DNA of 64,000 nucleotides from Takakia lepidozioides (Eukaryota; Plantae; Bryophyta), in NCBI GenBank assembly GCA_030704615.1, contig CM060731.1:66030001-66094000 (forward strand), in the 5' to 3' direction. The position numbers were made by a program, and so were the translations under genes. The stretch's first letter is position 1. Every line of letters begins with the position of its first letter. Of the stretch, positions 18,360 to 41,289 are shown in pieces. The notes under the pieces are model-generated. The model saw nothing but the letters and a program-made list of their open reading frames with translations. It searched no databases and was not told where the DNA came from.

Positions 18360-18578
18360 TTATCCCAAGCAGTGTGGACATAACCAATCTCCATCAGGAA
18401 CCCTCTCAAGAGGTGGTGTCAAGCATCCCATATGCCAACCTCTTGAGCATCGATCACACACCAGCATGGTGGCTGCCTCTTTGGCAGACCCACAGAGCAT
18501 GCACCTCAAAACTGCAGGTACCACTGCCCAAGTTGGGTCAACTCTGCCATCAACATGGGAAGGTGACATGGCGCACAA
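18360..18578 (-). pseudogene. PHD finger at the integrase C-terminus (copy 1)
   Basis: CMLCGSAKEAATMLVCDRCSRGWHMGCLTPPLERVPDGDWLCPHC has the complete C4-H-C3 PHD pattern. Confidence 0.92.
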
Positions 18579-18619
18579 TTACGCACATGGTCCTTCCAAG
18601 TCATGCCATCCCGACCCTC

Positions 18620-19600
18620 CTAGATCAGGACTCCTGAGGGCAACATCTCTCGAACCCTCAGAATAACACGCCCTGCAGTGACATCCAGGGTTGTAGGAGC
18701 AGTCTGCTGCAAATAAACATAGTCACCAGGGCTAAACCTCCGAACCCCAGGACGATATCCTCCACCACGTATAGTGGCATACCTCAACGTATCACGGTGT
18801 TGTGCAATGGCAAGGTTCTCAAAAGCCATGGGCATGACTTTCTTGAACAACTCTGCACGCTGACCACATACACGTACCCACACGTCTGGATCGTCAAGGT
18901 TAAGGACTTGAGCAGTGTCCCTACGAATGGCTGCACGCAAATCCGGCTCTCGGCCTGGTGAGAAGGAGGCAAGTGATGCTTGCTTGCTGAACCTGTAGCC
19001 CATGGCTAACCAAGGTACCTGAAGATCCCAATCTCCTAGGTATCCCTTCTGCAAGCCGTACTTGTGCAAACCCCTCTTCACCGTCTGAACAACTCTCTCT
19101 GCCAAGCCATCGGCCTCAGGATGATCCCGAGAAGTGGTGCGATAGTCTATCAAGGCTTTATCACACAAAGCCTGAAACTCCCCCCAAGAACTTTCTCCCT
19201 TGGTCCGTGAGTACCTCAGCTGGAGCACCGAATCGGCTAAGCACACGATCCAAGAATGCATACACAGCCCCCTCACTAGCCTTGTCAGGAAATGGAACCA
19301 ACTCAATCCACTTGGAGAAGTGCTCCACCATCACCAACACATATCTGTGGTGGCGCATAGTTAGTGACAACGGTCATGCGAAGTCAAGACTCCACCTGTA
19401 GCCCAATCCCATGATTGGTAAATGATGCAACTGTGGTGTAGGGGCGTTGAATGAAGCACGCACCCTGTTATACACCATGCACCTAGCCACGAACTGTTGC
19501 ACCTTTGTATACATACCACACCACCAATACTGCCCCTGCAGTAAACTGTGAGTGCGTCGCACTCCAAAATGCCCCAACTCCTCATGGACATGCCGCACTA
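18620..19600 (-). pseudogene. DDE integrase (copy 1), frameshifted
   Basis: HEELGHFG...CMVY zinc-finger region, WSLDF, LTDQG, HPEADGLAERVVQTVK spread over several ORFs. Confidence 0.9.
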
Positions 19601-20099
19601 ACTGTGCACGCTGTGTGGGGTGGGGAAAAATCCTCACCCGACCATCATCCCATACTCGGAGCAGGTGTATCCCCTCCCACTTGAACCTCTTGGCTCGTTG
19701 CAGGATCCGATCTCTTTCCCTGGCAGTCACAGTGGCTGCCGTGTCTCCCGTGTGGAGGTAGTCCAACACAGCTGAATCCTCATGTATATCTCTGACACCA
19801 CCTGGCTCATCATTAGCCTCAGGGTCCTCAGACACTCCGTCTATAGTCATCCCTGTTGTAGGTCCAACCTGACCTCCCGATGCTAAGATACACAAAAATG
19901 CAGATGCGTGCCATCCCGACACCATCTCCTCGTCCGTCTCACCATGCCACCGAGCTCCAGTGTCATCCTGCTAGCTCGTGCAGATGGTGTCGGCGACTCA
20001 CCATCGATGCATTTTTGTGACCAAACCCGGGATGGTCAACCTGAAAATAAACAGGGATGACTATAGACGCAGTGTCTGGGACCCTGAGGCTAATGATGA

Positions 20100-21340
20100 A
20101 GCCCATCAACCACTTGAGTGGCTGGTGATCCGTGACAAGGTGAAGAGATTGTCGTATAGATAGCACCTGAAGTGTGCCACGGCCCACACTGCAGCTAAGC
20201 ACTCTCCCTCATATGAGCTGTACTTAGCCTCTGCAGCGTTGTTCGAGTGGCTAGCATAAGCCACTACGAACTCTCTTCCCTCATCATCCACCTGTGTGAG
20301 CACCGCTCCAAGCCCCAGCATGCTCCAATCCGTATGCAGCTGAAAGGGACACCCCCTAATAGGTCGTCTCAGGATGGGCGCCGAGGTCAACCTCGCCTTG
20401 AGCTCTTGAAAAGCTCGTTCCTGCTCATCTTCCAACTGCCACTCCTGGTCCACCTTGGTCAGCTTGGTTATAGCCTTTGCAATGGCACTAAATCCCTTGA
20501 CAAACCGTCTATAATAGTTTGCCAACCCCATGAAAGCTCAAACTCGGCTCACATCCGTGGGGCGTGGAATTTGTGCACTGGCCTCTACTTTAGTCTGTTG
20601 TACCCCCAATCCTCCAGGATATATCATGTGACCCAGATACTCAATCTGGTTGTGGAAAAACTTGCATTTCCCCAGATGCAACTTCAATCCGTGCGCTCTC
20701 AAGCGCTCCAATACCACCTGAAGGTATCTCTCATGCTCCTCCACTGTAGCACTAAAGATGATGATGTCAACTATGTAGCACCGAGCAAAGTCCACCCCTG
20801 CTAGAATCCTATCCATGACTCTCTGAAACTCTGCAGGAGCGTTGTTAAGCCCAAATGGTAAGAACCGCCACTGATATAGGCAATCCTTGCCGTGCTCATT
20901 GATCCCCCAGAATGCCGTCTTCTGCTTGTCCGCCTCTTTGATCGGCAACTAGTGATATCCGGATCGTAAATCCAAAGTGCTAAAGACCTTAGCATGCCCA
21001 ATGGCATCAAAGATCTCCTCCGGTGTTGGCATGGCATACTTATCGGACTTGGTTTGACGATTTACAGGCCGGTAATCACCGCACATACGTCTCTCCGTCC
21101 AATAGCCATAGACATCCTTCTTGGCTGGCATCACTGTGGCTCAAGCATACTCTCCACCAAAGAGCTCCACCAAACCAGCCTCCCAGAGATCTTGAGTCCT
21201 CATCTGAATCAAAGACCACTCCATGTCACTGTATCTATAGGGTCTCCGAAAGATTGGCGTGTCAGTGGCCAACTCAATACAAATCTCTTGACCCTTCAGT
21301 GCTCCCAAGTCCTTCAAGTTGAAGGCAAAACAATTCATGT
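20100..21340 (-). pseudogene. Reverse transcriptase and RNase H (copy 1), interrupted
   Basis: RMCGDYRPVN, FSTLDLRSGYH, LPFGLNNAPAEFQ, CYIVDIIIFS (YIDD mutated), YLGH, LHTDWS, YSSYEGECLAAVWAV. In-frame stops are present. Confidence 0.93.
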
Positions 21341-21799
21341 AAGCCCTCAGGAACCACCGTATACGTCGTCTCTCTCCTCCGGTGACAATGGGTCCAATGT
21401 CAGGCTCCCAATTGTCCTCCGTAACTGCAACCTTAAGTCCAGTGGGCTTAGAGGTAGAGGACGCGTCCAGTGGTTGCTATGTTGCAACCTCTTGAGCAGT
21501 ACTCCCTGCCTGCTCAGTCAATGACAAAGCCTCATCCTGCCCCATCATCTCATCCTCGAGGACTTCCTCAACCCGAGAAAAATCCCCAACCTCATCCATC
21601 ACCGCCGCTTTGGCTGCCAACTCCCTCTGAACCTCGAGCACCTCCCACGTGTGCCATGGATGCCTACACCCCGTGGTCCTTACATGCTTGCCCCCACTCA
21701 CTGCCTGTACCGTCTCGGTAGGCAGAGAGACCATCGAGGGAAGTGTACTCCGCACTCTGCGTTGCTCAGCCATAGCCAAGCTGATAATCCAGGTCAAGC

Positions 21800-22720
21800 A
21801 ATTGAGATCCATTGCTTGCCCCAACACCTGACGACGTGATGCCTCAGAAAGAGACGGCACCGCCGTGGTACCAATGGTAAAACCCATTGCCCGCTCACGC
21901 TCGTCAGTATTAGGCTCCACTAACTGCTGCAACTGAGCATCCCACAAGAGGCCAGGTCCACTATTCCGGAAAGCATGCGATCCTGGGAAGCTGAGCAGTG
22001 TAGGTAATGCTACTTATGGTTGACCCACCTTGTTGACCACTGCCAAAGGCGAACGGTCATCGTGTCTCACACGCTGAGACTGCCTCCCTGTGTCCAAAAT
22101 GCTATCCACTATGAGGTGTGCTGGCCGCTGCACCCCATCAAATGCACGCTTGAGCAGTGCGGGTGGCATCAAGTTAGTCCACCATAGCCGTGGACGATGA
22201 GCCCGTGACCCCACTGTAGCTGCATCTAGCAACACTGCTGACCCAAGCCACAACCGGACTTGATACATACTGGCCATCACCCTGGCCCGAGAATCGCCCA
22301 TCAGTGGCACATTCTCCAAGATGTATGCTGGAGATACAGCTTGATGAAGCTGCAAGTGGCGCAAAACCCGCACCATCTTCCAAAACAGACCCGACCTTGA
22401 TTCTCGCAATCCATTGCCATGCCCGGCTGATGAATGTCCTTGGCAGGGCCAACCTGCCACTACTAGATCAATGGAGCCAACCCGCTTGCGCCCCCAGCAA
22501 CGAAATGTCTGCTGGCAAGGCCTGGTGATATCCACAAACTGCAGACACTGGCAACAACTCAGGGTACTGCTGCACCAACTGAGCAACATGGCGAAGTGAA
22601 ACGTGTCGTGCAGTCTCATCCCTCTCCGCATATAGATAATGTCGAACTCGTACACCTGCCTGTAACACAGCAGCCAATCCGGTGCTGATCCCGCCAAACA
22701 AGTCCAGAAGACAAATGCCT
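21800..22720 (-). pseudogene. DNMT3-like C5-cytosine DNA methyltransferase domain inside pol (copy 1)
   Basis: Motif I LLDLFGGISTG, motif IV DLVVAGWPCQ, motif VI YILENV, motif VIII RAHRPRLWWTNL, motifs IX-X ERERAMGF...RRQVLGQAMD. One frameshift (~22490) and one stop (22014-22016). Confidence 0.92.
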
Positions 22721-23129
22721 TCATCCGGATACTGCCACACAATAGGTGTGGTGTCCAATAGAGACCACTGAGGTGGTCCTGGTGCAATCCCCGCAATCTC
22801 CTCCTCTCCTGATGATATAAAAGTCTCTACCCAGGCTTGTTGCACCTGTTGATCAGCAACCTGCTGCAAATCCTTGCTCGTGCCCCACAATGGAGTCTGA
22901 GCAATCATGGCAGGCAACTCCGCCATACCATGCATGTCATCCTGCGCTCCCGGAGGTGACACATCCTCTGAATGAGCGTTGCCCTCAAGCAACTCTCCAG
23001 GCCAACTCACTGCAGCTGTGAATGCTGCTAGTGTCGGCATCTTGCCTCGCTGGGCAACCGCAACTCCTCCTATGAATGTCACAGGGAACTGCACACGCCG
23101 GTCCTCCCTTGATTGCCATCCAGGCCTAT

Positions 23130-23540
23130 ATGAAGCTGACTCCTCCCAAAAATCCAGGGTGAAGCCCATGGGGTACAACACTGCCCCACCAACCAGGACA
23201 TCGTACGAGACCGCATCTGTCACAATGGCCTTGGCTCGCATCACTGAGCCATCTGTAGGGTGATCCGGCCGTAGTCTGATAGCCAACTCACACCGTGTCA
23301 TGCCCCGAGCCTGCTCCGATCCTCCCAGAGATGTCTGTATCTGGAAAGGACAAGGCTCCATATCCGCCTCTGTGAGGCCCAAGCCTGCAATAGCAGCTCT
23401 GCCCAACATCAATGGTTGAGCTCCCGAGTCCAACAAGTCCCACAGTGGCCGGTACCTCTTGTCTGCCGGTCCACTCAAACAGAAAATGGCATCCTGGTTG
23501 TCTAACATGACAACTCCAGGTATCACCATGGCGCGCTCAA
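23130..23540 (-). pseudogene. Aspartic protease (copy 1)
   Basis: LLDSGAQPLMLG active-site motif and downstream YDVLVGG..L, in frame with DNMT motif I (ORF 22468-23661). Confidence 0.85.
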
Positions 23541-24124
23541 TGGCTGGCCTAACTGGCAACTCCATCAACCTGACAGCTGCAGCTTGCCATGGCGTCGCCG
23601 TGGCAGTCTTGACCCTCAAATCCGAGGATCCCTCCGGCACTACACCTCCCACTATCTCCACAGAAGATTAAGTAACCTCCCTACTCTCACAAAATGTAGC
23701 TGCCAGCCTGAACACCTCAGCTGGTCTTACCCCCGACGTCGCAATCATGGTAGCCGAGAACAATGGAGCCTGACACACAGATGTGGCCGCTCCCAGCAGC
23801 ACACTAGCTGCCGTAGCCTTGGCAACACTAGGTAGTGGTGCTACCCGTGTAGCTCTCCCCAATGGCATAGTAACCTCCGCCTCGGTAACAGTTGGGAAAG
23901 AACTAGGTGCCATGGATGGCGTCGACACTATCTCCGCCAATGTGAATAACTGAGGGAGCCTAGCCTGACGGCTTGCCTCCCCACGCTGTAGATCCAACTC
24001 CGCCTCTGCACCTCGTGGCTCAGGAACTCGTGCTGCTCCTCAAGTCACGGCTGCAGCAGACTCCACCTGCACTACTGGTAGTGCTGCTCCGCACATGAAT
24101 CCCATGTCTCCCATATCTCCTCCC

Positions 24125-25090
24125 TCAAGAGCAGGGAAGTGGTGTCTCCTTAGCAAATCCCACCATGACCATGTTGAGCTCTATCCGCTCTGCTAGCAAA
24201 AACACATTTGCTAAGGTGGGTTGGGCCGCTTGTAGGAGAGTTGCATCCCACACCCTTCTCCTCAGCTCCTTGTCCAATATCCCATACCAAAATTGGACTG
24301 CTTGAGCTTCCGTAATCCCTTGGGTTACATTTATCAAGCGCCTCATGCGAGTGAAAGCCTCTCTCAAGCTCTCAGTCGGCTTCCGTTGGAACTCTTGCAA
24401 GCTCCGCAACTTCTCTGTCCTCATCCCTTGGTAGTTCCTTCTTAACTCTTCGAAGAACTCCACAACAGGGTTGAAGGCAGGCACCGCCACTGGTGCTAGT
24501 GCAGCAGTAGCTTGGGTGGACGTCGTAGCTACGGTATCACCAGTCCTATTAGTCCCACTGCTGCTTGCTGAAGCTGCCGGTGCAGCGGCAGGTGTAGCCA
24601 CTGCCCTCGTGGCTCTAGTGCCCCTAGTGATGGAGACATAGTCGGGTGACCAGTACATCCTCCACTCCTCGATCTCAACCTCATGCCCCCGCCTGAACTC
24701 ATGGTAATCATCCATAGGCGGCCCCTCAAGGTGCTGAAACAGCCCCTTCCATGCCATGAAAGACGTAAATAGTTGTGGATTGCATATTTGCTGCAAATCA
24801 CACCAACTATCAAACTCTTGGATAAAATCATCCAACTCGATGGTGACCACTGCCCCAGAGTACCTTCGTGGCCGCTTGGTAGCTCCATAGATCTCCTCCA
24901 TTGTGTCCCATAACAATGACAAGGAAATAACTTGCACCGCCGGTGTGAGTCCTCCTGATTCACAATCCGAATCCGAACCTTCCGTAGAAGACACGAGAGG
25001 TGAAGGTGGCCTAAACCGCACACCTCGTCTCGTGTACCCACTAGTATCGCTAGTGCTCAAACCGGCACTGTCCCCAGCAACTAGTGGCAC
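24125..25090 (-). pseudogene. Gag (capsid-like) ORF (copy 1), nucleocapsid region deleted
   Basis: RYSG...LDDFIQEFDSWCD and LQEFQRKPTESLREAFTRMRRL...QFWYGIL resemble retrotransposon Gag. The CCHC knuckles seen in copy 2 are missing. Confidence 0.8.
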
Positions 25091-25839
25091 CTTCGTGTTG
25101 ACAAACTGTCACTCAACCGGTCATGAACATGTCCCTAACCCCCTCTCCACAAGGTAACTGGGTAGAGAACCTGTTGCGGCTTATGGTTTGGAATACTAGG
25201 TTCTTAACATAGCCTACACCTGCACCTGCATCCACCGCAAGCACTCATATGGTTGGCTGGTCATCACCTCCAACCTCACCACAGGAGAAACAATGATGAC
25301 TGACTGGTCATCACCCCAGCCTCACCAGCGACAGCATGCTCTAGGACTGGCCGGTGATAAAATCCGGACCAATCACCTATAAAAACAAGCGCCCACACAA
25401 AACTAACATGGCGCACGGTCAAGCATGCAGGTATGGAGGGGATCCAAACACAAGAAATCAGAACGACAACTCCCCCATACCAAAAACAACTCCACGGTGT
25501 TGCTCCTGCAAGGATACCCCAGCCCAAACCCGAACTGACTCTTGCCTCCACCTACGGAAAGGTCTTGGCCTAGTGAGAGGGTGGAAAACTACGAGGAAGA
25601 GAAGCTAAAGCAATGCCTAACCCCAGCATGCCCTCATCCCAACACTCTTTTTCTCATCTCTTCCCTCACTTGCATGACCATGGAAATATCATGAAGATAC
25701 TCCTCAAACCGCCCTCCACGAGCTTCAAAATGCGGCCTTCAAGACATGCCAGTCCTTAGGCAGTCCACCAGTGCTTCCACGAGTCAGCACAAGCCGTCCA
25801 CAGATCAACACGGGCCACCACAGACCAGCACAGGCCCAC

Positions 25840-26350
25840 ACAGATCACTGGTCACAGCCATCACAGCCCCACACAGGCCACAGCCTGTCACAGCCCTACA
25901 CAGGTCACAAGGTCACAGCCCCACAGGCCACAGCCTGTCACAGCCCCCAAGGCCACAGGTCGCAGCCTGTCACAACCCATCACAACCCCAAAGGCCACAG
26001 GCACAGCCTGTCACAGCCCTACACAGATCGCAGGGTCACAGCCCCAAAGGCCACAGCCTGTCATAGCCTGTCACAGCCCCTCACGGCCTCTCACAACCCT
26101 ACACAAGTCACAGGGGTCACAGGGCACAGCCTGTCACAACCCCTCACAGCCCGTCACAACCCCACAGGCCACATGGCACAGCCCCTCATAGCCCCACAGG
26201 CCACAAGGCACAACCCACCACAGCCTGTCACAGCCCGCCACAGCCCATCACAGCCCATCACAGCCCGTCATAGCCCCACAAGCCACAGGGCACAGCCTGT
26301 CACAGCCCCTCATAGCCCATCACAGCTTGTCACAGCCCCACAGGCCACTC
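25840..26350. repeat. Short-period minisatellite (GTCACAGCCC / CACAGGC) in the copy 1 leader
   Basis: Dozens of imperfect tcacagccc/cacaggccacag units. Confidence 0.9.
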
Positions 26351-26809
26351 ATGACAGTTTAGCCATTTCTCCAAGGGGTTTAGCCACGCCAAGCTAGGGT
26401 TTGTGTCTCTTGGACTCTAGGCTTCTTTGCACCGAGCTATGGTGGCTGTGAAAAAATCAGCAAGGTATTCTTGCTCTTTCGGCTCCCACACACCACCAAT
26501 AGTAGCCCTAAGCCATGAGGAAGATGGTTGCCACAAACCAAGCCTTCTTTCTCACTTAGACTCCCCAAACACGCCACTAAACTCAATGGCAAACAACCAA
26601 GCCTTGCTGGTTTCCAACCCTTGTGAGCACTCATTCAAGCGTTTTCCTTGGCCATAGCATCTGTCTTAGAGCCTATTCTAGCCCCCTACACATGCCACTT
26701 CAAGAGCCATGCTCTATCTAGGCTTGAGGTTGAAACCCCACCTCACATATGCCCTACAAGTGCTTTTCTTTCACCCAAGTGGGAACCAGCCCTAGCCCTT
26801 CCATTCTAG

Positions 26810-27180
26810 CTCTCTAAAGCTTGAAAACAAAAGCCCAATGGACTGAAGGCATGCTCCACACATGCCCCACTCCCACCATAAGAGAATCAGTCCCTTTGCT
26901 TTCTTTCTTGCACCCACCAACCTGAAAATACACGCTTCAGCGGGCTGGAAGCATGCTCCACACATGCCCTACAGGGAAACCAGCCCCTTCTTTCCTTTCT
27001 TGCACTCCCAAACCTGAAAGTACAAGCCTTCAACAGGCTGAAAGCATGCTCCACACATGCATTGCTCTCACATAAGGGAAGTCAGCCCTTCCCTCTTCCT
27101 TGCTTGCCCTCCAAGCTTGAAGATGGAAGCTTCAATGAGCTGAATACATGCTCCACACATGCAACCTCTTCACACAAGAG
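26810..27180. repeat. ~100-bp tandem repeat x4 in the copy 1 leader
   Basis: CATGCTCCACACATGC recurs at about 26850, 26953, 27045 and 27147. Confidence 0.85.
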
Positions 27181-28895
27181 GTATCAACCCCCTATCTTGG
27201 CTCCTTAGCTCCTTGATGCTCTCTAAGACAAGACTAAGCACTCCACAGCTCTTGCCAAGCTCCTGAAACCCTAAGACTTACATTTCCATCCACAAGACAC
27301 TCCTCTTGTGGTGTAAGAGCTCTTCTTCCAAGCTCTGAAACCCTAGGTGCACATTCCATGGCCTTGCCGCACCTCTTAGCTCCTATTCCGGCCCTGCTCT
27401 TGCCATGATAAGAGCCCTCTCAATGCTGAAGCTCGAGATTGAAACCCAATCTCAACATACTCCACAAAGTGCACTGATTTGCCCCAAGCCAAATCAGCCC
27501 TTTCGCTTGGTCTTGCAATCCTTCACACAATGAAAGCTCGCATTCCCAAGGCTAGTCCTCAGCTTTGCCACCAAAGCCACTCTAACCTGCTCTTGACTGG
27601 TCCTCTTCCCAATCGTGCTTGTTCATGCATGTACACAATCTGAAACCATCAAGGTGCTCTGGAATTACCTGCAGCATGGTGCTTTCATCTCTGAAGTTGA
27701 AGATCAAATGCCAAGGTCTACTACCTCGTAACCCACATCGCCTCCGCTTCTAACAACCAAGAGCTCCACGGTGCTCCTTGCATAACAACCTGGTTTCTCT
27801 CATTCTCAAGCAAAAACCACAAGTGCTACAACTAACTCGTATTTGGCACTTACAGATACGAGCTCATCTTTCTCGAGTGATAAAGAAGAATAATACAAGC
27901 ACAAGCTCATGCGAGCTCACAAAGCTGAAGCATAAACTCATGCATATATAACCTCATCACTCAAATACAAGTCAAGCCAAGTGCACCCCACGCCATGGGG
28001 AATCCACACTACGGCGCCATAGCTAGGCGCGGTGAGGCTCAACTCGAGAAAGATGAGCCTCCCGCACTTGCTGTGAAGATAACCACTCCAGGGCCTAAAT
28101 CTGCCTTGACCCCTAGATTGACACTTGGGCCAATCCCAAATGTCAATATGTAAAAGCTAGCTATTTCCTAGCTAGTTTCACACTAGTGGTAAAATAACTT
28201 GACACCCCATTCCAAAGATACATTTTGGCAATTTCACCGTGCTTACCACAAGGTCAGGCCTAGACGATCTGCTGGAATTCCTCATGGTGGTGGTGGTGAC
28301 AGTGGCGGCAATAGTGGTAATGGTGGAGGCAGTGGGGGACCCGAGTGTAGGTGCTGGGGGTGTAGGTGGGGCTAGTACTAGTCTACATCTAGTGCTAGTC
28401 GACATCTTACATGCAACAACAAAACAAATCAAATAACAAAGATGACACCACGTCGAATACGGCCCATTGCAGATACCTCCGGTCTCATTTCATAAAACAC
28501 TACAACTTTACAACTGCAAATTTGACAGTTGGAAGTCCAAGTTTCAAATTCTTTGAATTTTTTCTCCTTCTTTATAATTCATGTTTATAGGCAATTTCTA
28601 GTACCATAGTTGGACACCTATTAAGTGGGGGATTCAAAGGAAATATTTCCGCGTTAGATTCTATAGTCCTTGATGTGAAATGAGTAACCACCCACTACCC
28701 CACGGTGAGTAGGATCTCCATTTAATAAGACTTTGTCGATGACAGTTTCTTTCTCCTCCCACAGAAGAATCTGCGGAGTATTCTGTAACTACATGAATAA
28801 TGATCTATAGGCACATATATATAGCTTTAACTTGCAGAGCTCTACAATGAGCTCTAACATGTAAATAAATATTTCAAACCCATTTGTGATCTCCC

Positions 28896-29185
28896 TGTAG
28901 TTGTAGTGAATATCTCTTGGACTATGGATAGATTAATTCGTATAAGGAGATAACAATATTTGCACACTTTGATTCAAGTTTCTTTCAAGGGTATTGTAGC
29001 AAAGACAACCTCAAGTCAAAGAAAATAAGCTGAGGTAAGACAATGTGACATTTCAGTCACTGTCTTTCAGCACTTGTCTTGCTTTCCACGAGAGAGAAAT
29101 AGAGAGATATTATCTTCTATGTTGTTCAACTTGAACATGGAAAATGATATTTCTTGTTTAATTACGTGAAATAGAGCTCCAAGTA
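28896..29185. repeat. Third copy of the 16366-16975 dispersed repeat
   Basis: Near-colinear with 16692-16975, including gctttccacgagagagaaatagagagatatta...gagctccaag. Confidence 0.85.
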
Positions 29186-29870
29186 TACGAAGATTTTCAT
29201 GCATCGGAAGCAGATTTTAGCATGGCTAAATAATTCCAATAAAATGACACCGAAGCGACTAGTGAAGCCATCGCCATATCATCATGTTTACCTTGGACAA
29301 CTTGCTAGCATTGTTCAATTTGGTCTCATTTTTAACACAATTTACTCACAATCTAGTGTTATTTTTGCTTTATTAAGTTTGGCTTGCTTTTTATTTTGCA
29401 GTATAACTAGAGTCAACAATACCTTTACCTTCTGCCCCACCATATGAGGCACAGTTAAAAAAATGCAATTCTTGTTTCGCTTCTTCCCCAGCTTGTACCT
29501 CTCACACATGTATCAGAAGGGGTAATTACGTATAATTTGTTTTGGGAATTGCCTCAATGCATGTAACAGTGGATTGATAGCTGACAAAACCATCATTTTC
29601 ATGTCAATGTCCATGGAGTAAATTGCACATTACTTCTTCGTTATGCTTTGATTGTTGTATGGTGTGGCACTACAAAAAATATGCCAATATCATTGCATGT
29701 TGTTTGTTGAATACCATAGCAAACACATCAAATCCACAAAATTTAATCTAAATTCGTTTTCACAACATTGTATAAACAACAAAAAATGATACGAAACTTT
29801 ATGGATGGAAAGGGACATGGGATCTGAGAAAAACTTGAGGTTGTGGAAAGTGGTAATGCACCAACTCCCC

Positions 29871-29937
29871 TGTCGTGCACCTAAGCATCGTGCCACAAGA
29901 TACATCGTTGTCCAACCACACTTCCTAGCGCCACAAT
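29871..29937 (-). repeat. Terminal repeat B2
   Basis: Matches B1 (30270-30356) apart from 3 substitutions and a 20-bp gap. Confidence 0.9.
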
Positions 29938-30267
29938 GATACGGAAATGGTGAAAAGAGGAGAAACCACTCTATCACGTTATATAAGTCAAGCCAATGAC
30001 ACCTTTGCTAAAGGACTCCACCATACAGACCTCACCCACTCCCCATCTCAAGAACTAGAGCTATGGCGGCGAGAGAGGCCTCGGGAGGCTCGACTAGAAG
30101 AAGACGAGCCTGCCTATGGAGATAACCTCCCCACGTCCCAAGTGAGGTTCGCCACCTCACTTGGCACATGGAACCAAATGAAATCCCAATGCCAACAAAA
30201 TACAAATATAAATGTATAATGTCCTAATTCTAACTATTTCTAACTAATCACAAACAAAACCATGACA
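29937..30267 (-). repeat. Repeat A2 (331 bp)
   Basis: Matches A1 (42493-42840) with about 10 substitutions, nearly all transitions, and two indels (9 and 8 bp). Confidence 0.95.
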
Positions 30268-30269
30268 GC

Positions 30270-30356
30270 TGTCGTGCACCTAAGCATCGTGCCACAACAT
30301 ACATCGCTATCCAACCACACTTCCTAGCATATAGTCCTAGAAAGCCACGCCACAAT
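30270..30356 (-). repeat. Repeat B1
   Basis: tgtcgtgcacctaagcatcgtgccacaa...cttcctagc...gccacaat, separated from A2 by the dinucleotide GC. Confidence 0.9.
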
Positions 30357-30619
30357 CGCCCCCCTAGCTGGTGATTAGGTCCCTCTAACACCGGATAGCT
30401 TACAAGTATCCACCCAAATAAGATTATCGCTTGGTCTTCAATCGCACAAGCCCCAACACCTGAAGTCGATAGATCAAGAGGCCGGGTGCAAACGTAGCCC
30501 CATCGTTAGTCGCCTTCATGCAATCCATGATCTTCAGCTGAATATCCATGGCATTGAAATCCCACTAGCTAGACCTTGGATCACTTGTCCGCCTCACCAT
30601 TGTTATGCTCACTACCTCT

Positions 30620-33600
30620 GTCCAAGGCATCGTGGACACAACCATTCTTCGATATGAACCTCCTCAAGTGGCGGTGTCAAGCATCCCATGTGCCACCCCC
30701 TTCAGCATTTGTCACACACCAACATGGTTGCGGCGCCACCAGCATGCCCACATAGCATGCAACGTAACCCTGCAGGTACCACTGCAAGGTTGGGATCTAT
30801 CTTCCCATCCACATGTGAAAGGTGACATGGCCCACAATTGCGCACATGGTCCTTCCATACCATGTCATCTCGACCCTCCAGAATCAACACTCCTGAAGGC
30901 AACACCTCCCTGACCCTTAGAATCATACGTCATGCTGTGACATCCAAGGTCGTAGGCGCTGTCTGCTGCAGATACACATAGTCCCCAGGGTAGAAACGCC
31001 AAACACTTGGCCGATATCCCCCTCCACGTATAGTGACGTACCTCAATGTGTCTCGGTGTTAGGCAATAGTAAGGTTCTCAAAAGCCTTAGGCATGACTCT
31101 CTTGAACAACTCTGCCCGCTGGACACATGCTTGTGTCCATACATCCGGATCATGAAGGTTGAGCACTATTGCAGCCTCCCTACGAATAGATGCAGGCAAA
31201 TCCGGCTCTCGGCCAAAGAGAAGAAAGTAAAGTGAGAATGAGGCAAGTGAAGCTTGTTTGCTGAACCTATAGCCCATAGCTAGCCAAGGCAGCTGAAGGT
31301 CCCAATCTCCTAGGTGTCCCTTCTGCAAACCGTACTTGCGCAAACCTCTCTTGACTGTCTGAACAACTCTCTCCGCCAAGCCATCAGCCTCGGGATGATC
31401 CCGAGAAGTTGTGCGGTGATCTATCAAGGCTTGCTCACACAAAGCCTGAAACTCCCCCAAGAACTCTCTCCCCTAGTCCGTGAGTACCTCGGCTGGAGCA
31501 CCAAAATGTCTAAGCACTCGATCTAAGAATGCATATGCAGCCCCCTCACTTGCCTTGTCCGGCAATGCCACCAGTTCAATCCATTTGGATAAGTGTTCCA
31601 CCATCACCAGCACATACTTATTATGGCGAATCATCAATGGCAATGGGTCTGCGAAGTCAAGACTCCAACGATAGCCCAAACCCATAATGGGTAAATGATG
31701 CAATTGTGGAGTAGGGGCATTGAAAGAAGCCCGAACTCTATCACACACCATGCATCTGGCCACTAACTGTTGCACATCCGTGTGCATGCCCCGCCACCAA
31801 TACTGCCCTTGCAGAAAACTATGAGTGCGCCGCACCCCAAAATGTCTCAACTCCTCATGGGCATGGCGTACCAATCGCGCTCGTTGTGTTGGATGAGGCA
31901 CAATCCTCACTCGTCTATCCTCCCATACCCGGAGTAGGTGAGTCCCCTCCCACTTGAACCTTTTGGCTCGTTGTAGGACCAGATCTCTCTCCTTAGCAGT
32001 CACACTAGCTGCTGCCTCTCCGGTACGAAGGTATGCCAACACTGCTGCATCTTCATGCACATCCTTAGCACCACCAAACTCCTCACTAGTCTCTGGATCG
32101 TCATGCATGCTATCTACATGACTAATCGCATGGGATTGACTAGCTTGAGCTCCCTTTGCTAGAATGCACAAAAAGGCCGATGCATGCCATCCTGGCACCA
32201 TCTCCTCATCCGTCTCACCATGCCACCGAGCTCCAGTATCATCATGCTCGCTCGTGCATGGATTACAACTCAATCCTTCTGCATCCCGATTGACAATACC
32301 GGCTCGATGTACTACCTGGAAGTCGTACTCTTGAAGCATAAGTGCCCACCGTGCAAGCTTGTCTGACTCCATCAACCACTTCAATGGTTGGTGATCCGTG
32401 ACAAGGGTGAAGAGATTGCCATAGAGGTAGCATCTGAAATGTGCCACTGCCCATACCGCAGCTAAACAATCTCTTTCATAGGAACTATACTTCGTCTCGG
32501 CATCATTGTTCGAGCGGCTAGCATATGCCACTACAAACTCTCTTCCCTCATTATCCACCTGTGTGAGCACTGCTCCAATCCCTAGCATACTCCAATCCGT
32601 ATGTAGCTGGAAAGGCCGCCCCCGAATAGGCCGCCTCAGAATAGGTGCAGAAGTCAATCGAGCCTTGAGTTCCTCAAAGGCTTCCTCCTGCTCCTCCTCC
32701 CACTGCCACTTATGACCCACCTTGGTCAACTTGGTAAGAGCCTTTGCAATGCTACTAAATCCCTTGACAAACCGTCGATAATAGTTTGCCAATCCCATGA
32801 AAGCACGAACTCTGCTCACATCCATGGGACGTGGAATGCATACAATGGCCTCCACCTTTGTCTTTTGAACACCCAATCCTCCAGGATATATCATGTGGCC
32901 CAGATACTCAATCTGATTGTGGAAGAACTTGCACTTTCCGGGGTGTAGTTTCAACCTGTGCGCTCTCAAGCGCTCAAACACCACCTGAAGGTATCTCTCA
33001 TGCTCCTCAACCGTAGCACTAAAGACAATGATGTCATCGATGTAGCACCGGACGAAGTCTAGCCCCGCGAGAATCCTATCCATGACCCTCTGAAAACTCT
33101 GCAGGAGCATTCTTCAACCCAAACGGTAAGAACCGCCATTGGTACAAACAATCCTTCTCATGTTGGTCAATCCCCCAGAATGCTGTCTTTTGTTTGTCAT
33201 CCTCTTTGATTGGCAACTGGTGGTAACCAGATCGCAAGTCCAATGTGCTAAACACCTTTGCATGCCCAATGACATCAAAGATGTCCTCTGGAGTTGACAT
33301 GGCATATCTATCGGACTTAGTCTGACGGTTCACAGGACGATAGTCCCCACACATCATTCTTTCTGTCCAATTGCCATAGATATCCTTTTTAGCTGGCATC
33401 ACCGTTGCCGAGGCATACTCCCCACTTGACAATTCCACTAATTTAGCTTTGAACAACTCCATAGTCCGTGACTGGATCAATGACCTTTCCATGTCACTAT
33501 ACCGGTAGGGCCTTCGAAAGATTGGCGTGTCACTTGCCAAATCAATACGAATCTCCTGACCCTTCAAACTCCCCAAATCCTTCAATCCGAAGGCAAAGCA

Positions 33601-33822
33601 ATGCCTATAAGCCCTTAGAAATCGCTGGATCCTCCGTCTCTCTCCTCCGGTGACTGTAGGTTCAACATCTGATTCCCAATTGTCCTCAGTGACTGCAACC
33701 TTGGGTACACCAGGCTTGGAGGTAGGAGACGAATCATTTGGTTGCTGTAACCTGCCCAATCTGACTGTGGCGTAGCCTCCACTTGCTCCACCATAGCCAT
33801 CTTGAGAACATCCTCTGAGCAA
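30620..33822 (-). pseudogene. Pol RT-RNaseH-integrase-PHD (copy 2), interrupted
   Basis: MCGDYRPVN, LDLRSGYHQ, CYIDDIIVFS, LHTDWS, HEELRHFG..CMVC, WSLDF, EADGLAERVV, CMLC...CDKC*RGWHMGC...WLCPRC. One frameshift near 33090 and several stops. Confidence 0.93.
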
Positions 33823-33826
33823 GAAA

Positions 33827-34646
33827 CACTACAACATATCGCGGTAGTTATGATTGCCAAACCGTGGTAGTCATGGTTTTCATGATTTTGACCATGACTG
33901 CACCATGTTTTTATATGAAATTGACCTCCCGACTGTAGTCATATGAACGACTATCTAAATAGTCGTCTGTATGACTACATGGCTCCGGAATGGGCGGAAG
34001 GCTGGTTAACGGCAATTGACCAGATTTAGCTCACCATTCATAGTCATTTCCATGACTATAGTGTACATGGATGAGGTTACCTAGTCATGATGACTACTGG
34101 GGATTTTGTAATTTGGTGTGTATAATACAATTAAAACACCATATGATCATATGAATGACTAATGGGTGTATTGGTAAACAGGTAGTGAACTATAACTCTT
34201 ATAGTAAAGAGGTTGCAGGTTCAAACTCCTCTAAGTACAATCAAATGGATAAGATGGCCCTAGGGTTAGTAGGCGAGCTAGGGATAGCACGTGGTACCTT
34301 AGATGGACTACCACGTGGTTTTTTCATTATTATAAAATGCATTATGCCACGTGGCACAATGCGGTGCGACGCGACGTTTGACATATGTTTTTTTATTATT
34401 TTTTTAATTTTTTAAATCAATTGCGCCTCGCCACGTGGCGCGGCAGCGGTGGCTGCAGTATGGTATATATGACTGCAGTGAGAGATATCACTTGGTTCAT
34501 ATGACTGTAGTCATCCGGACTGTACCATCCTGTACTCATTGTATTGACTTGGTTTGCACGACTTACAGTCATAGAAGTCATATGTACCGTTTATGACTGC
34601 AGAATAGTCATATATATAGTCATAAATATCGCGACCTGTTGTAGTG
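33827..34646. mobile_element. Non-autonomous CACTA element (820 bp), AAA TSD
   Basis: TIR CACTACAACA(ta/gg)TCGCG at both ends. AAA at 33824-33826 and 34647-34649. ATGACT/AGTCAT subterminal motifs. No ORF. Confidence 0.93.
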
Positions 34647-34949
34647 AAACATTCTCAATCTCTTCAAAAACCTTGGTCACCTTGGCCTCCAACTGATCCT
34701 CAGTCCATGGCTCTTCCCACTCCTCATACTGCTGCTTGAGAGATCCAATAACTCTCTCTTTGCGCATCTCATCTCACATCTGCCATGGGTGTTTGCAACC
34801 CACGATCTTATGCTCGCCCCCACTCACTGCCTTAACCGTCCCGGTTGGCAAAGATGATGCACTATCCAATGGGAGTGCAGAAGTAGCCATCAATGCTTGC
34901 AATCTCCGTTGCTCAGCCATGCACAAGCCAATTATCCATGTCAAGCAAT

Positions 34950-35876
34950 TTAGATCCATTGCTTGACCCAACACTTGACGGCGTGATACCTTTGACAGAG
35001 CTGGCACATCGGTAGTGCCCGTGGTAAAACCCATTGCCCGCTCTCGCTCATCTGCATTGGGCTCCACCAATCGCTGTAGCACACTGTCCCAAATCAATCC
35101 AGGACCATTGTCTCGAAAAGCATGAGACGAGGGAAAGCTCATGAGCGTAGGCAAGGCCGCACGTGGCTGCCCCACTCGATTGACCACTGCTAGAGGTGGA
35201 CGGTCATCATATCACACCCTCTGTGGTTGTCTCCCTTGGTCCAAAATGCCCTCAACCGTGAGATTGGGTGGCCGTTGAATGGAATCGTATGCTCTCTTGA
35301 GCAGCTCTGATGGTGCAAGATTGGTCCACCACAATCGAGGTCGATGCGCGCGTGATCCCACCGCTGCTGCATCCAATAGCACCGCCGATCCAATGCAAGA
35401 CCGCACCTGATGCACACTGGCCATTACCCTGGCCCGAGAATCCCCCATAAGAAGAACATTCACCAAGATATAGTTTAGAGGTTGCACTTGCCTCGTCTGC
35501 AAGTCCCGCTATACTCGCAACATCTCCCAAAACAAATGCGATCGTGCATCATGCAAGCCATTCCCATGACCTACGGGAGAGTGTTATTGGCAAGGCCATC
35601 CGGCTATCACCAAGTCAATGGCACCATGCCGGTCCAAATCATCCGCCCCCAGCAAGGTAATGTCTGCTGGCAAGGCCTTTTGATACCCTTGAATTGCTGA
35701 GAGAGGCAACAACTCAGGATATCGGTGTGTGAGCAAGGCAATGTGGCGCATAGAAATACGTTGAGCTATCTCATCATTCTTCACATACAAGTACTTGTGT
35801 ACTTTAATCTCTGCTTGCAACACTCCTGCAAGCCTAGTGCTCATGCCTCCAAACAGGTCTAGCAAACAAATCCCTG
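34950..35876 (-). pseudogene. DNMT3-like C5-cytosine DNA methyltransferase domain (copy 2)
   Basis: LLDLFGGMSTR, IDLVIAGWPCQ followed by a stop, YILVNV (ENV mutated), RAHRPRLWWTNL, ERERAMGF...RRQVLGQAMD. Confidence 0.92.
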
Positions 35877-36269
35877 AGTCAGATGGTTGTCAGGTAATGG
35901 GCACCGTGTTCAAAGGAGCTAACTCAGGAGGTCCAGATGATGTCACTGAACTCCTTTCATTCACCAATGGAAAGGCCTCCTGCCATGCTTGGTGCACACA
36001 CTCGTCTGCTACTCAATGCAAATTCCCAATCGTACCCCACAGTGGAATATGCACAGGCACATGAGAAAGCAAATCAGCCTTGTATGCCAATTGTTTGTCC
36101 TCATCAGGTGATGGCCTATCATCTGCATGGCTATTGCCTTCCAAGAGCTCACCACCCCAAGCCACTACCCCTGAAAATGCAGCCAATGTGGGCATCATGT
36201 TCCTATGATCCACTGCTACATTCCCAATAAACCGCACTGGGAGTAGTGCACGTCGGCCATCTCTTGACT

Positions 36270-36680
36270 GCCATTCCGGCCTGTAGGATGCCGTTTCCTC
36301 CCAAAAGTCCAGAGTGAATCCCATGGGGTATAATACCGCCCCACCAACAAACTCATCATAAGACATCGCGTCCGTAACAATGGCTTTAGCTCTCATGACT
36401 GTGCCGTCCATGGGATGATCCGGCTGCAATCAAATGAAGAGCTCATGACGTGTAATTCCTCATGCCTTCTCTGAACCACCCAAAGATGTTTGAATTTGGA
36501 AAGGGCAAGGCTCCAAATCCGCCTCTGTAAGGCCCAAGCCTGCAATTGCTGCTCTCCCCAACATCAATGGCTGTGCTCCTGAGTCCAACAAGACCCGTAG
36601 TGGCCTATACCTCCTCCCGGCTGGGCCACCTAACTGAAACACACCATCCTAATTGTCCACCAAGACTACCCCAAAAATCA
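36270..36680 (-). pseudogene. Aspartic protease (copy 2)
   Basis: RVLLDSGAQPLMLG; YDEFVGGAVL; stops present. Confidence 0.85.
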
Positions 36681-37099
36681 TCATATTACGCTCAATGGCT
36701 GGCCTAGCTGACAACTCCTGCAACTATGCAGCTGCCGCTTGCCATGGTGCAGCTGTAGCTGTCTTCACCCTTGAGTCCAGGGCATCCATGCATTGCACAT
36801 TATCCACTATCCCCGCAGATAGTGCCGATGCATCACCACTCTCACAGAGTCTAGCTGCTAGTCTGAACACAGCAGCTGGCCGAATCTCCGGCAATTGCAA
36901 TTGTCATTGTAGAAAATAATGGAGCTTGACAAACAGCCGTAGCCGCCCCCAACAATGTACTGGCTGCACCTTGCTTTGCAGCACCACCCACTGGCATTTC
37001 CCGAGCCACACCAACTCTCCCCAATGGCACTCGTGGCTCTACCTCTGACACACTTGGGCAAACGGGTGCCATCGATGGCGTAGTTGGCACTGTCTCAGC

Positions 37100-40010
37100 C
37101 AATGTGAAAGACTGTGGAAGTCTTGTCTGTCGACTTGCTTCCCCCCTTTATGGATCAAAATCCACATCTGCTCCTCTTGGCTCAGGAGCACGCGTTGCTG
37201 CTCGAGTGACAGCAGCTGCAGAGTCCACATGCAATATTGGTCCTGCAAGTGCGGCTCCACACATGAAGCCCATACCAATCTGGTCTTCCCTAGGCATAAG
37301 AGGTTGTGCAGGTGGAGCTTGAACCTCAGGCCTTGGAGCTGGCTCAACATGCGTAGTGGCCATGGTAGCAAGACGTTGCTCTAGCTGGGCAAGCCTATCC
37401 ACCATGCCTTAGTCATGACCTTGACCTTGACCTTGTGTTCCCTGGTTTTGATTACAACCTCCACCGCGACCTCTGCCTCCTCTACCTCTCTGGACTACAT
37501 TGACTCGTCCTCGGCCACCATTGTTCCCTTGGAACTGGCCTGGCCGTAGCTCAGGATGCAAGTCATAACAATGGGCTTCTTCATGCCCATACTTGCCACA
37601 ATGCCCATACTGTAGTTGTGTAGGTTGTGCCTATGCCGACCCTTTGCCTCTCTCCGGGCAATCTCTCTTAACATGGGGTCCTCCACAATCCCAACATGTC
37701 ACACCCGACTGTTGTTGGCCTAAGAATGAAGGAAGTGACCTCTGCAATTGAGATCCTCTCTGTCCTTCCCTGGGTTTCGTCTGAGCCCCCTTGTTGCCTT
37801 GAGCACGTTGGGGTAGTGGTTGTTGTTGGCTAGGAGACCCACTTCGTTGTGTCTTCTTACCAAACCCCACCATGACTACTCGTTCCTCCACCATATTGAG
37901 CTCTATCTGCTCTGCTAGCAAAACACTACTACGTTTAGGGGGGGGTTAGCGACGCCAGGACCCTCTTGCGACTGCAGCGTCGCACAGGCGCCCGACTCGG
38001 GACTTGCGACGTCGGGGCGTCATAACGTCGATGCTCGGACGACGTTGTGGCATCTTGCGATGCCCTGCCGTCGTCGGAAAGGGGCCTGATCCCATCCTCC
38101 GCCAACGTACTGGGGGGGGTTGCGACGCCGGGGAATCACAACGAGACGTCGCAGCGACGCTTTTGCGACGGCCGGGCGCTCCTGCGGGGAACCGCAATGC
38201 CCGGGATTTTTTTTTTTTTTTTTTTTTCACGATTCCCCGCCGTTGTAGGAACGCCCGGCCGTCGCTGGGGCTGCGGCGCTGCGATTCCCCGGCGTCCTGG
38301 GGGCGTCGCGGAAAATTGATTCTGGGAGTAGATTGTAGAGCATAATGGGTTTGGCATCCTCAGACTATAGCCATTGTCCAACAAAAAGTTGCAATGCAGC
38401 TTTGCAAAACTTAGATATTTGTTCTTGAAGAACTCTGGGGACAAGTCTCGGTGCAAGTTCCAGCTGTGCGAGCTCATGTAGAATACGCATAATCTGCAAC
38501 ACAATGATAGGATTGAGATAGTGGTAGTCACTAGGAGCTAACTTTTGATATGTATATATATACTTGGACTGCTTTTGTGATACATAGATGTATTGTAGAT
38601 TTGTTGGTTAGTGTGCAGTGTCTTAGAAATGTTATAATGTGGAGGTCCTAGGTTCAAATATGCATTGCCTAATATATGTAGAACAATGCATGAACTGCCA
38701 TTGGACAAAACCGGAGTCAATGGTCAACGCCGAGTCAATGATCAACTAGTTTTTGAAAATTAAAATTAAAATTAAAATTAAAATTCAAAATTTCCCACCT
38801 CAATTCAAATGTACCCCCCTACTGTGACGTCGGGGGGTCGCATTTACGACCCCCGGACGTCCCTAATGCGACGTTGCAGAAAATAAAAATAAAAAATAAA
38901 AATAAATAAAAATATATTTTGACTCCCGGACGTCGCAAGTCGCGCCGGTGCCGCGAACGGGGGTCCTGGGGGGTTTGCGATTCCCCGACGACGCTAATTA
39001 GCGACGTTCCAGGAGCGACGTTTCTGCGACTTCCCGACGTCGCAAAATGCCACCGGCGCGCCTCTGACCTCATAAAGTATTTCCGTCGCTAACTGTGGCG
39101 GTTGGAGGTTGCTGGGGCATCGCTAAACCCCCCCAAACGTAGTAGTGAAAATACGTTTGCTAAGGTAGGTTGGTCCACTTCTAGGAGAGTTGCATCCCGC
39201 ATCTTTCTCATCAGCTCCTTGTCTAATATCCCATATCAGAATTGGACTGCTTGAGCTTCCGTAACCCCTTGGGTCACATTTATCAATCGCCTCATGCGCG
39301 TGTAAGCCTCTCTCAAACTCTCAGTAGGCCTCCGCTGGAACTCTTGCAAGCTCCGCAACTTCTCTGTCCTTATTTTCTGGTAGTTTCTCCTTAACTCCTC
39401 GAAGAATTCCACAACTGGGTTAAAGGCAGGTATGAGTGCTGGTGCTGCAGCAGGAGTGTGAGTGGATTTCCGAGCTCCATCTTTACTTGTCCCACTACTA
39501 GTGCTTGCAGTTGGGGATGTTGATGTAGCTGCTGGTGTCGCCGCTGCCCTTGTGCATCTAGTGATGAAGATATAGTTAGGTGACCAATATTGTCGCCACT
39601 CCTCAATTTCCCTGCCTAAACTCATGGTAGTAATCCATAGGCGGCCCTTTAAGGTGCTGAAATAGCCCCTTCCACGCCATAAAAGACGTAAACAGTTGTG
39701 GATTGCGCATCTGCTGCAAATCACACCAACTATCAAACTCTTGTATGAAATCATCAAGCTCGATGGTGCCCACAGCTCCCGAGTACCGACGTGGTCCCTT
39801 GGTAGCTCCATACATTTCCTCCACCGTATCCCACAACAATGGCACGAAAATGGCTTGCACCCTCGGCGAGAATCCTCTTAACTCTGAGTCTCAACTTTCC
39901 TCAGAAGACACTGAAGATGAAGGTGGCCTAAACCGCACACATCGTCTTGTATACCCACTAGTATTGTTGATGCTCGTACCGGCACTCTCCTCAGCAACTG
40001 GTGGCACCTC
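37100..40010 (-). pseudogene. Gag with two CCHC-type zinc knuckles (copy 2), split by a CACTA insertion
   Basis: LQEFQRRPTESLREAYTRMRRL; CWDCGGPHVKRDC (~37660-37700); a second degenerate knuckle YGHCGKYGHEEAHC (~37570-37612). Confidence 0.82.
37924..39147. mobile_element. Non-autonomous CACTA element (1224 bp), AAA TSD
   Basis: ~30-bp TIR CACTACTACGTTT-G-run-TTAGCGA(C/T)GCC. AAA at 37921-37923 and 39148-39150. Removing the element plus one AAA restores colinearity with copy 1 (tgctagcaaaaa-ac-tttgctaagg). CGACG-rich subterminal repeats. Confidence 0.95.
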
Positions 40011-40784
40011 CGTGATAAAAACTCACACTCAAACCGGCTATCAACTCGTCTATAATCCTCTTTTCCACAAGGTAACTGGGTAGAGAACCTGTTGCGGCTT
40101 ATGGTTTGGAATATTAGGTTCTTATTCTGAACCTGCACCTGCATCCACCGCAGGCGCTTTTATGGTCTGCTGGTCATCAACCCAGCCTCACCATAAGAGA
40201 AACAATGATGGTCTGTTGGTCATCACCCCAACATCACCACCGACAGCACGCTCTAGGATTGGCCGGCCACAATATTTCCGGCACAACCACCTATAAAAGC
40301 AAGCGCCCAAACCAAACTAGCATGACGCACAGTCAAGCATGCATGTGTGGGAGGAGGATCCAAACACAGGAAACTCAAACAACAACACCTCCCACAACTT
40401 AAATCAATCGATCTCCTTGCGGCTTCAATAAACCTGCAAGATGGCCAAGTCTCTATCCAAACTAGCTCTGCCTCCACTTACGGAAAAGCTTTGGCCTACA
40501 AGAATGATGGAAGACTATAGAGAAGGGAAGCTAAAGCAATCTCTAAGCCCAGAATGCTCTCATCCCATTACTCCCCCTATCGTCATACTCACACTTGCTC
40601 AAGCAATAGATAAGACTATCCTTAAAGAACCTCTCAAATAACTCTCAAGAGCCCTCAAATTATTGTCATGAACTTCTGAAATCTGCCCTCAATCAGCCCC
40701 TCACATAGACCCACCGAGGTTCAAGAAGTTCGCAAACTTGGACTCCAAACAGTCCACCAAAAGGCCCTAGGCGCCCGCCAATTA

Positions 40785-41270: not shown

Positions 41271-41289
41271 ATATCCATAGTCAGTCGAT

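Follow-up and report, generated by a model that had tools for sequence, protein, structure and literature searches.

The 64,000-nucleotide stretch of Takakia lepidozioides DNA analyzed here (GenBank assembly GCA_030704615.1, contig CM060731.1, positions 66,030,001 to 66,094,000; hereafter the window) holds two dead copies of one Ty3/Gypsy-type retrotransposon family, both on the minus strand, which carry a cytosine methyltransferase (DNMT) domain (Table 1). Pfam and our own profiles gave the domain order of the family as Gag, CCHC knuckles, protease (PR), DNMT, a stop codon, reverse transcriptase (RT), RNase H (RH), integrase (IN) and a PHD finger. The PR-RT-RH-IN order with a DDE integrase (PF00665, PF17921) is that of Ty3/Gypsy (Metaviridae) elements, and the TG...CA ends with a 4-bp target duplication lie within the 4-6 bp of this group. 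Two full direct long terminal repeats (LTRs) at the element ends were not found; the family has the split forms A-internal-B-A-B and A-internal-B instead. The two copies share 69% (PR-DNMT) to 78% (RT-IN) DNA identity in self-BLAST. Their decay is marked by frameshifts and stops in both copies, by loss from copy 1 Gag of the zinc-knuckle stretch of copy 2 (a gap in self-BLAST) and by two CACTA-ended insertions in copy 2.

Table 1 Features of the two elements and neighbouring genes in the window (position 1 is the first base of the window).
Feature	Positions	Strand	Remarks
Copy 1, whole element	17952-28204	-	A-internal-B, decayed; ends TGTCA...CGACA in element sense
Copy 1, flanks		+	CCCG / CCCC, one mismatch between them
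Copy 1, 5' repeat A	27878-28204	-	TG...CA ends; place and sequence (by eye) like copy 2 A1
Copy 1, primer-binding-site position	27863-27877	-	complements 28042-28058 in repeat A; predicted self-priming
Copy 1, Gag, capsid part	24200-24868	-	PF03732 E=1.7e-4, short of cut-off
Copy 1, aspartic protease	23071-23463	-	LLDSGAQ at 23416-23436
Copy 1, DNMT3-like C5 methyltransferase	21762-22719	-	PF00145 E=6.2e-12 (ORF 22014-22826)
Copy 1, DNMT motif LDLFGG	22690-22707	-	
Copy 1, DNMT motif AGWPCQ	22440-22457	-	
Copy 1, DNMT motif ILENV	22308-22322	-	
Copy 1, DNMT motif RAHRPRLWWTNL	22170-22205	-	
Copy 1, DNMT motif ERERAMGF	21879-21902	-	
Copy 1, DNMT motif RRQVLGQAMD	21807-21836	-	
Copy 1, in-frame TAG CAA CCA between DNMT and RT	21471-21479	-	predicted readthrough signal
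Copy 1, RT and RNase H	20040-21272	-	PF00078, PF17917, PF17919
Copy 1, DDE integrase	18956-19634	-	PF17921
Copy 1, C-terminal PHD finger	18369-18503	-	match to own profile
Copy 2, whole element	29871-42840	-	A-internal-B-A-B, decayed; CCCC / CCCC flanks
Copy 2, repeat A1	42493-42840	-	92% identical to A2
Copy 2, primer-binding-site position	42481-42492	-	complements 42650-42661 in A1
Copy 2, Gag with CCHC knuckles	37499-39791	-	broken by CACTA-ended insertion 37924-39147
Copy 2, protease	36226-36624	-	DNMT frame; PF13650 E=0.005, short of cut-off
Copy 2, DNMT3-like C5 methyltransferase	34909-35877	-	PF00145 E=2.6e-8, X read at stops
Copy 2, CACTA-ended insertion in DNMT-RT linker	33827-34646		
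Copy 2, RT, RNase H, integrase	31191-33540	-	Pfam and own profiles
Copy 2, PHD finger	30627-30761	-	PF00628 E=1.3e-9
Copy 2, polypurine tract (~30356-30364), then repeat B1	30270-30364	-	GGGGGGCGA-B order same in metagenome loci
Copy 2, palindrome GACAGCTGTC at B1-A2 joint	30264-30273	.	same joint in other loci
Copy 2, repeat A2	29937-30267	-	self-BLAST, end mapping
Copy 2, repeat B2	29871-29935	-	self-BLAST, end mapping
B3-domain protein	5566-6765		host gene
Nucleoside transporter exon	48173-48565		host gene
Long unannotated ORFs with QVQELHR motif	51073-53984		presumably DUF863-like
TBL12 ortholog, four exons	60548-63030		host gene

The methyltransferase domain and its retention

Both domains matched PF00145 above its curated cut-off, and motifs I, IV, VI, VIII, IX and X run in linear order in both copies. 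The original prediction had read one set of motifs in the two copies; their positions hold, but copy 2 has LDLFGGMST rather than LDLFGGIST and VNV rather than ENV at motif VI, with loss of the Glu. As it had also proposed, motif I of copy 1 lies in the protease frame (open reading frame (ORF) 22468-23667), while the domain itself is interrupted in two places, by a frameshift (near 22470-22490) and by a stop (22014-22016). In copy 2, PR and DNMT occupy a single frame with three stops within DNMT. Identity with plant DRMs was rejected, since these are circularly permuted with motifs VI-X before I-V. A PDB search with the single domain gave DNMT3A as the top match (E=1e-11) and M.HhaI at 2e-3, and a 62-row family profile scored DNMT3A at 88 bits, DNMT3B at 78, DRM at 56 and 43, M.HhaI at 37 and DNMT2 at 25. 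The AlphaFold model of the copy 2 domain (pLDDT 96, pTM 0.93) was matched by Foldseek to DNMT3A/B/C in 32 of the 32 rows listed, with a TM by target of ~0.8 to catalytic-domain chains. In these profile and PDB fold searches, DRM, DNMT2 and bacterial enzymes are all more distant from the domain than DNMT3 is, in agreement with the DNMT3-like identity first assigned to it.

Between the two copies, dN/dS of the DNMT was 0.13 (Nei-Gojobori, 296 codons; pN/pS 0.27, bootstrap 0.20-0.34), with 0.07 for RT and PR, 0.09 for RH and IN and 0.20 for Gag; stops and frameshift ends were skipped, dS of ~1.5 is near saturation and post-insertion decay inflates dN. This ratio, which is not near 1, indicates from the codon comparison that the DNMT domain has been under purifying selection. 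Moreover, DNMT lies between PR and the downstream pol domain in 43/43 informative loci among 79 metagenome loci, in a search with one protease and one DNMT pattern that is hence partly biased towards DNMT carriers. Both results bear out the suggestion that the domain is a selected and regularly kept part of the family. The metagenome loci share no DNA with the window outside the elements and ~70% identity inside them, so they come from a different host. In run X1, 26,563 contigs matched 21300-23700, protease and DNMT alike; in the organism behind the best-matching runs the family is abundant, and depth is not to be read as copy number. That both window copies are broken could fit a chance-caught host DNMT3 fragment drifting neutrally, or an assembly artefact. 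This explanation is refuted by dN/dS of 0.13 at such a dS and by the 43 loci, and the same domain order in Marchantia, Calypogeia, Sphagnum and Closterium proteins also speaks against it, so that we give it practically no weight.

The stop after the methyltransferase and a proposed role

In copy 1, an in-frame TAG CAA CCA separates DNMT from RT. A stop occupies this place in all 28 loci with DNMT and RT in frame (41 loci hold the DNMT end and the RT start). A pattern search found a stop followed by CAACC in 40/56 loci, mostly from a single peat-moss-like family; 14 gave no match, and 2/56 matched another codon at the stop site, both carrying an insertion there. The independent lineages at the stop are the window, locus L010 (TAG CAA CCA), locus L015 (TAG TAG CCA) and the peat-moss-like family (TAG or TAA, CAA CCC). 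No variants of at least 1% were listed at 21471-21479 in runs X1 (926 contigs), X5, X8 and X12 (6, 1 and 1 contigs), while the neighbouring positions 21459, 21469, 21470, 21482 and 21483 do vary in runs where 21471-21479 is invariant. In contrast, the stop inside the copy 1 DNMT differs in ~99% of the summed depth. A decay mutation as the origin of the copy 1 stop before RT was therefore rejected, the same stop recurring across loci without variants in the runs. Correspondingly, seven Marchantia proteins end 77 residues past DNMT and one Calypogeia protein 79 residues past it, as judged from protein records only. Because the conserved in-frame stop separates it from RT, DNMT, by its reading frame, closes the Gag-protease frame. 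The predicted place between PR and RT is thus correct, but the domain is not simply a pol domain.

In copy 1 and L010, the stop and the next six bases fit UAG CAR YYA, the motif for type I readthrough in tobamoviruses (PMC3542737). RT-RH-IN-PHD is thus probably produced by readthrough of UAG CAA CCA, in which case DNMT would be made at Gag levels. Reinitiation or a separate RNA is an unlikely alternative source of the second frame. It draws on an in-frame ATG two to four codons past the stop in the peat-moss-like family and L015, but copy 1 and L010 have no such ATG, their first Met being ~47 codons on and absent from copy 2, and the six bases past the stop match UAG CAR YYA and are invariant in the host family.

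On this basis we favour, with some reserve, a model in which the Gag-frame DNMT is likely produced in amounts similar to those of Gag, is likely taken into the particle and likely methylates the new cDNA of the element, the last idea following a proposal in PMC5890265. Frame 1, Gag-PR-DNMT, would stop at UAG, and readthrough would yield RT-RH-IN-PHD. The DNMT made in bulk would be packaged, then freed by the protease, and would methylate the cDNA ahead of integration. The new copy would then enter the genome already methylated, resembling host DNA. We see about an even chance that the main substrate is the element's own cDNA.

Several observations weigh against readthrough or against this model. 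Copy 2 lacks the stop, its frame being shifted at that site, and the peat-moss-like family is one base off the motif with CAA CCC and has its ATG two codons past the stop. In many algal relatives (P0214, P0288, P0390, P0403, P0444), DNMT and RT lie in one open frame, so bulk production is not needed for keeping DNMT. Most metagenome loci stem from one host family and are thus not independent. CpG observed/expected was 0.45-0.54 in the elements versus 0.40-0.43 in the flanks; since the elements are not more depleted than their flanks, CpG depletion gives the methylation mechanism no support. In addition, the KnitGypsy-Dnmt3 enzyme of Klebsormidium gave no methylation in yeast, a result that its authors call inconclusive (PMC5890265).

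The inactivity of the Klebsormidium enzyme in yeast also fits another explanation, in which the family retains the domain as a module that binds DNA or RNA (for end protection, particle structure or RNA methylation) and not as a DNA methyltransferase. The end-of-Gag place resembles the nucleocapsid position, and the motif IV Pro is replaced (GWECQ) in many relatives, namely in 7/56 and 32/95 rows of the two domain orders of the family's relatives. However, the active-site residues are nearly invariant (catalytic Cys, ENV Glu and both RxR Arg at at least 90% of 62 aligned rows), DNMT2 scores well under DNMT3, and two Symbiodinium retroelement DNMT3-type domains methylated CG in yeast (PMC5890265). 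We consider the binding module improbable, and conserved active-site residues suggest that DNMT is probably catalytically active in live copies.

In another view, the target of DNMT is not the free cDNA but host chromatin, either around the insertion or over a wider area, and the PHD finger on the integrase directs it there. PHD fingers read histone tails (PMC6673714), a PHD finger accompanies DNMT in both domain orders, and DNMT directly precedes integrase in green-algal relatives. In the window family, however, the stop comes between DNMT and PHD, and the Closterium-side relatives with DNMT gave no PHD match. We therefore regard action on host chromatin as rather unlikely, and prefer methylation of the cDNA as the working model.

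Split repeats, element ends and primer site

Copy 2 has the plan A1-internal-PPT-B1-GC-A2-B2 (PPT, polypurine tract). Its B1-A2 joint is the palindrome GACAGCTGTC, whose two halves form the outer ends of the element. The A-coding-B-A-B plan was also found in loci L030, L042, L043, L049 and L057, and the metagenome family shows both this form and A-int-B. The joint bases in the metagenome family are GC in 3/7 loci and AT, AT, AC and TC in the others. The 4-bp target duplication is exact in 7/8 loci with both ends, two of these being one insertion. The A-B seam is precise in most loci; primer-site bases remain in L006/L023 and filler in L030. Ligated cDNA ends can carry such leftover primer-site bases or filler. 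B-GC-A is taken as the full LTR because it reaches from the polypurine tract up to the last base ahead of the primer site. We think it somewhat more probable than not that the LTR is B-GC-A, that its ends are joined and that the DDE integrase cuts the joined molecule open at its internal CA-GC-TG palindrome. What counts against this is that the mirror form (B ahead of the 5' A), expected from a symmetric two-LTR circle, was found at 0/23 5' ends (19 distinct). A one-LTR circle, or else recombination between B repeats, may have given rise to the short A-int-B form.

The primer site is complementary to a segment ~170 nt upstream inside A. In copy 1, the exact complement is 17 nt long, a length reached by 0/2000 control windows, with a predicted fold, and in copy 2 it is 12 nt long (0/2000 controls); the lengths in seven further loci are 16, 11, 9, 9, 6, 0 and 0. 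The pairing is kept though the sequence changes, with three different sequences co-varying. Tf1/Sushi and Tcn1 elements self-prime reverse transcription (PMC6317226), and the co-varying complements suggest that the present family probably does so as in Tf1. Taken more widely, the family might belong to a green-plant-wide DDE lineage reaching bryophytes, with self-priming, DNMT at Gag stoichiometry via the readthrough stop, integration at an internal palindrome and pre-methylated copies. We hold this combined reading as tentative and on balance doubtful; within it, methylation may also label one of the two palindromes for cutting.

Other repeats accompany the copies. The 5' leaders are ~2.7 kb long, and their short tandem repeats (25700-26350 and 40700-41650) are wholly different between the copies. 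A separate ~290 bp repeat, 90% identical, at 16366-16976 / 28896-29188 brackets copy 1 and perhaps represents the LTRs of an older element that received copy 1; as an LTR of the DNMT element it was rejected by self-BLAST and the mapped element ends. The two CACTA-ended insertions of copy 2 are non-coding with AAA duplications and have CpG observed/expected of 0.88 (33827-34646) and 1.26 (37924-39147); they are possibly young because they are far less depleted than their surroundings.

Host range and comparison with known systems

A DNMT search returned 68 proteins, and the close ones that carry a species name belong to Marchantia polymorpha (many), Calypogeia fissa and two Sphagnum species; a second-frame search added Riccia sorocarpa, a Coleochaete scutata transcript, Klebsormidium and Closterium. 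In a DNMT tree of 67 rows picked from the matches, the window copies grouped with Marchantia, Calypogeia and Sphagnum rows (SH-aLRT 98). The RT tree agreed on this bryophyte grouping (98) with Coleochaete next, and three Klebsormidium RTs, from partial records without DNMT, fell in the same wider RT group (SH-aLRT 85). Elements of the second domain order, RT-RH-DNMT-IN-PHD, make up a separate DNMT clade (99) that includes Hariotina, Monoraphidium and a Chrzof1 record, which we take to be Chromochloris. A large green-algal clade has DNMT between RNase H and integrase (P0043-P0071, P0199-P0328, L071), and no mention of it was found in the excerpted literature on such elements. No vascular-plant member occurred among the 68 DNMT matches or the best 120 of 793 second-frame matches, a weak negative, as most matches are unnamed and annotations mask elements. 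Viral contigs yielded one distant methyltransferase (L080), which is not of the DNMT-retroelement family. Calypogeia also has a second RT lineage, which is more distant and groups with a record in which DNMT and RT are fused (P0432, P0442, P0444), so bryophytes may hold two lineages. Four Marchantia members (P0368, P0369, P0370, P0373) are Mp_Vg genes, by name on the male sex chromosome. P0526, a second-frame family protein filed at NCBI under an uncultured cyanobacterium, is probably eukaryotic contamination of a metagenome bin.

Host genes in the window bear on its origin. The four-exon TBL12 protein grouped with Physcomitrium (support 98/95 and 98/98; 63% identity) in a tree that left out liverwort, hornwort and clubmoss orthologs; on this basis, the host is likely a bryophyte. 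Grouping with ferns, suggested by Pteridium as the top match of exon 1, was rejected on the four-exon tree (p-AU 0.006), as were grouping with Selaginella (p-AU 0.004) and with the SM000052 row (p-AU 0.044), presumably Spirogloea. The claim of a land-plant family stands because of this grouping and the relatives annotated in Marchantia, Calypogeia and Sphagnum.

The novelty originally suggested has to be narrowed. Neither a land-plant description of such elements nor the readthrough stop was found in the open full-text literature, with subscription journals and Repbase outside its scope. Marchantia and Sphagnum are not mentioned in the three supplementary files of PMC5890265, and the PMC12344493 supplement gave no matches. 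In the REXdb excerpts, no PHD finger or methyltransferase is named for the Phygy, Selgy and Tcn1 clades. However, the same kind of element with split repeats was described from Klebsormidium in 2018, PMC12344493 places such elements in streptophytes and dinoflagellates, and bioRxiv 10.64898/2026.05.21.726589 names 'streptophytes (Gypsy-DNMT3)'. The window family is thus a land-plant variant of the kind known from Klebsormidium. What the analysis adds is the conserved UAG CAA CCA stop, the LTRs apparently opened at the internal GACAGCTGTC, the co-varying self-priming site, the green-algal order with DNMT before integrase and the stop-free Marchantia proteins. The family may have gone unreported in land plants because LTR finders needing two full LTRs would miss split repeats, and its hypothetical proteins may bias the number of DNMTs counted for bryophytes from their genomes.

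Since 2018, the question of what retrotransposon-borne DNMTs do has stood unanswered, confined to algae that offer poor genetics. Marchantia polymorpha is a model plant with methylation mutants and has several stop-free Gag-PR-DNMT proteins, e.g. Mp_4g09160 and BBN08134.1. With these natural proteins, activity, sequence context, readthrough and cDNA methylation therefore become testable. In addition, the way the element ends are built points to a route of integration that would be unusual with a DDE integrase.

Among known systems, KnitGypsy-Dnmt3 of Klebsormidium nitens (de Mendoza et al. 2018, PMC5890265) is alike in its Gypsy domain set, its unpermuted intronless DNMT3-like domain, purifying selection and DIRS-like split repeats A-coding-B-A-B. 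It differs in having DNMT in the Pol ORF with RT, whereas the window family has a conserved stop between them and a land-plant host; the excerpted text mentions no readthrough, self-priming, palindromic joint or PHD finger. SymbioDIRS-Dnmt3 also has a DNMT3-type domain in a retroelement polyprotein and split repeats, and its enzyme methylates CG in yeast (PMC5890265), but it uses a tyrosine recombinase. The window family has a DDE integrase (PF00665, PF17921) and 4-bp duplications, and no Pfam match to a tyrosine recombinase (DIRS / Ngaro / PAT) was found among 24 ORFs scanned, with an rve integrase instead. The EpiLTRs of Cymbomonas and Euglena (bioRxiv 10.64898/2026.05.21.726589) are likewise Ty3/Gypsy-like with a cytosine DNMT and a chromatin reader, but in them DNMT has DNMT4 as its sister group and is accompanied by DAM and a chromodomain. 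Membership in Troyka was rejected, as Troyka has CG...CG ends, a 3-bp duplication and animal hosts only, and the idea that Troyka has split LTRs is contradicted by the same source (PMC12440569).

For single steps, closer parallels lie elsewhere. Copy 1 and L010 fit the tobamovirus type I readthrough signal (PMC3542737), from which the CAA CCC of the peat-moss-like family departs. As in Tf1/Sushi and Tcn1 (PMC6317226), the primer site complements the element's own repeat and not a tRNA end, but those elements are chromoviruses with ordinary LTRs, whereas the window family combines a PHD finger with split repeats. For HIV-1, integrase is reported to be able to cleave two-LTR circles at their palindromic junction (PMC4372172), which resembles the opening of joined LTRs at a palindrome by a DDE integrase that we infer for the window family. 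In HIV-1, however, the palindrome is the end-to-end junction and its cutting a side route, whereas in the window family it lies inside the LTR and would account for the ends of every copy examined.

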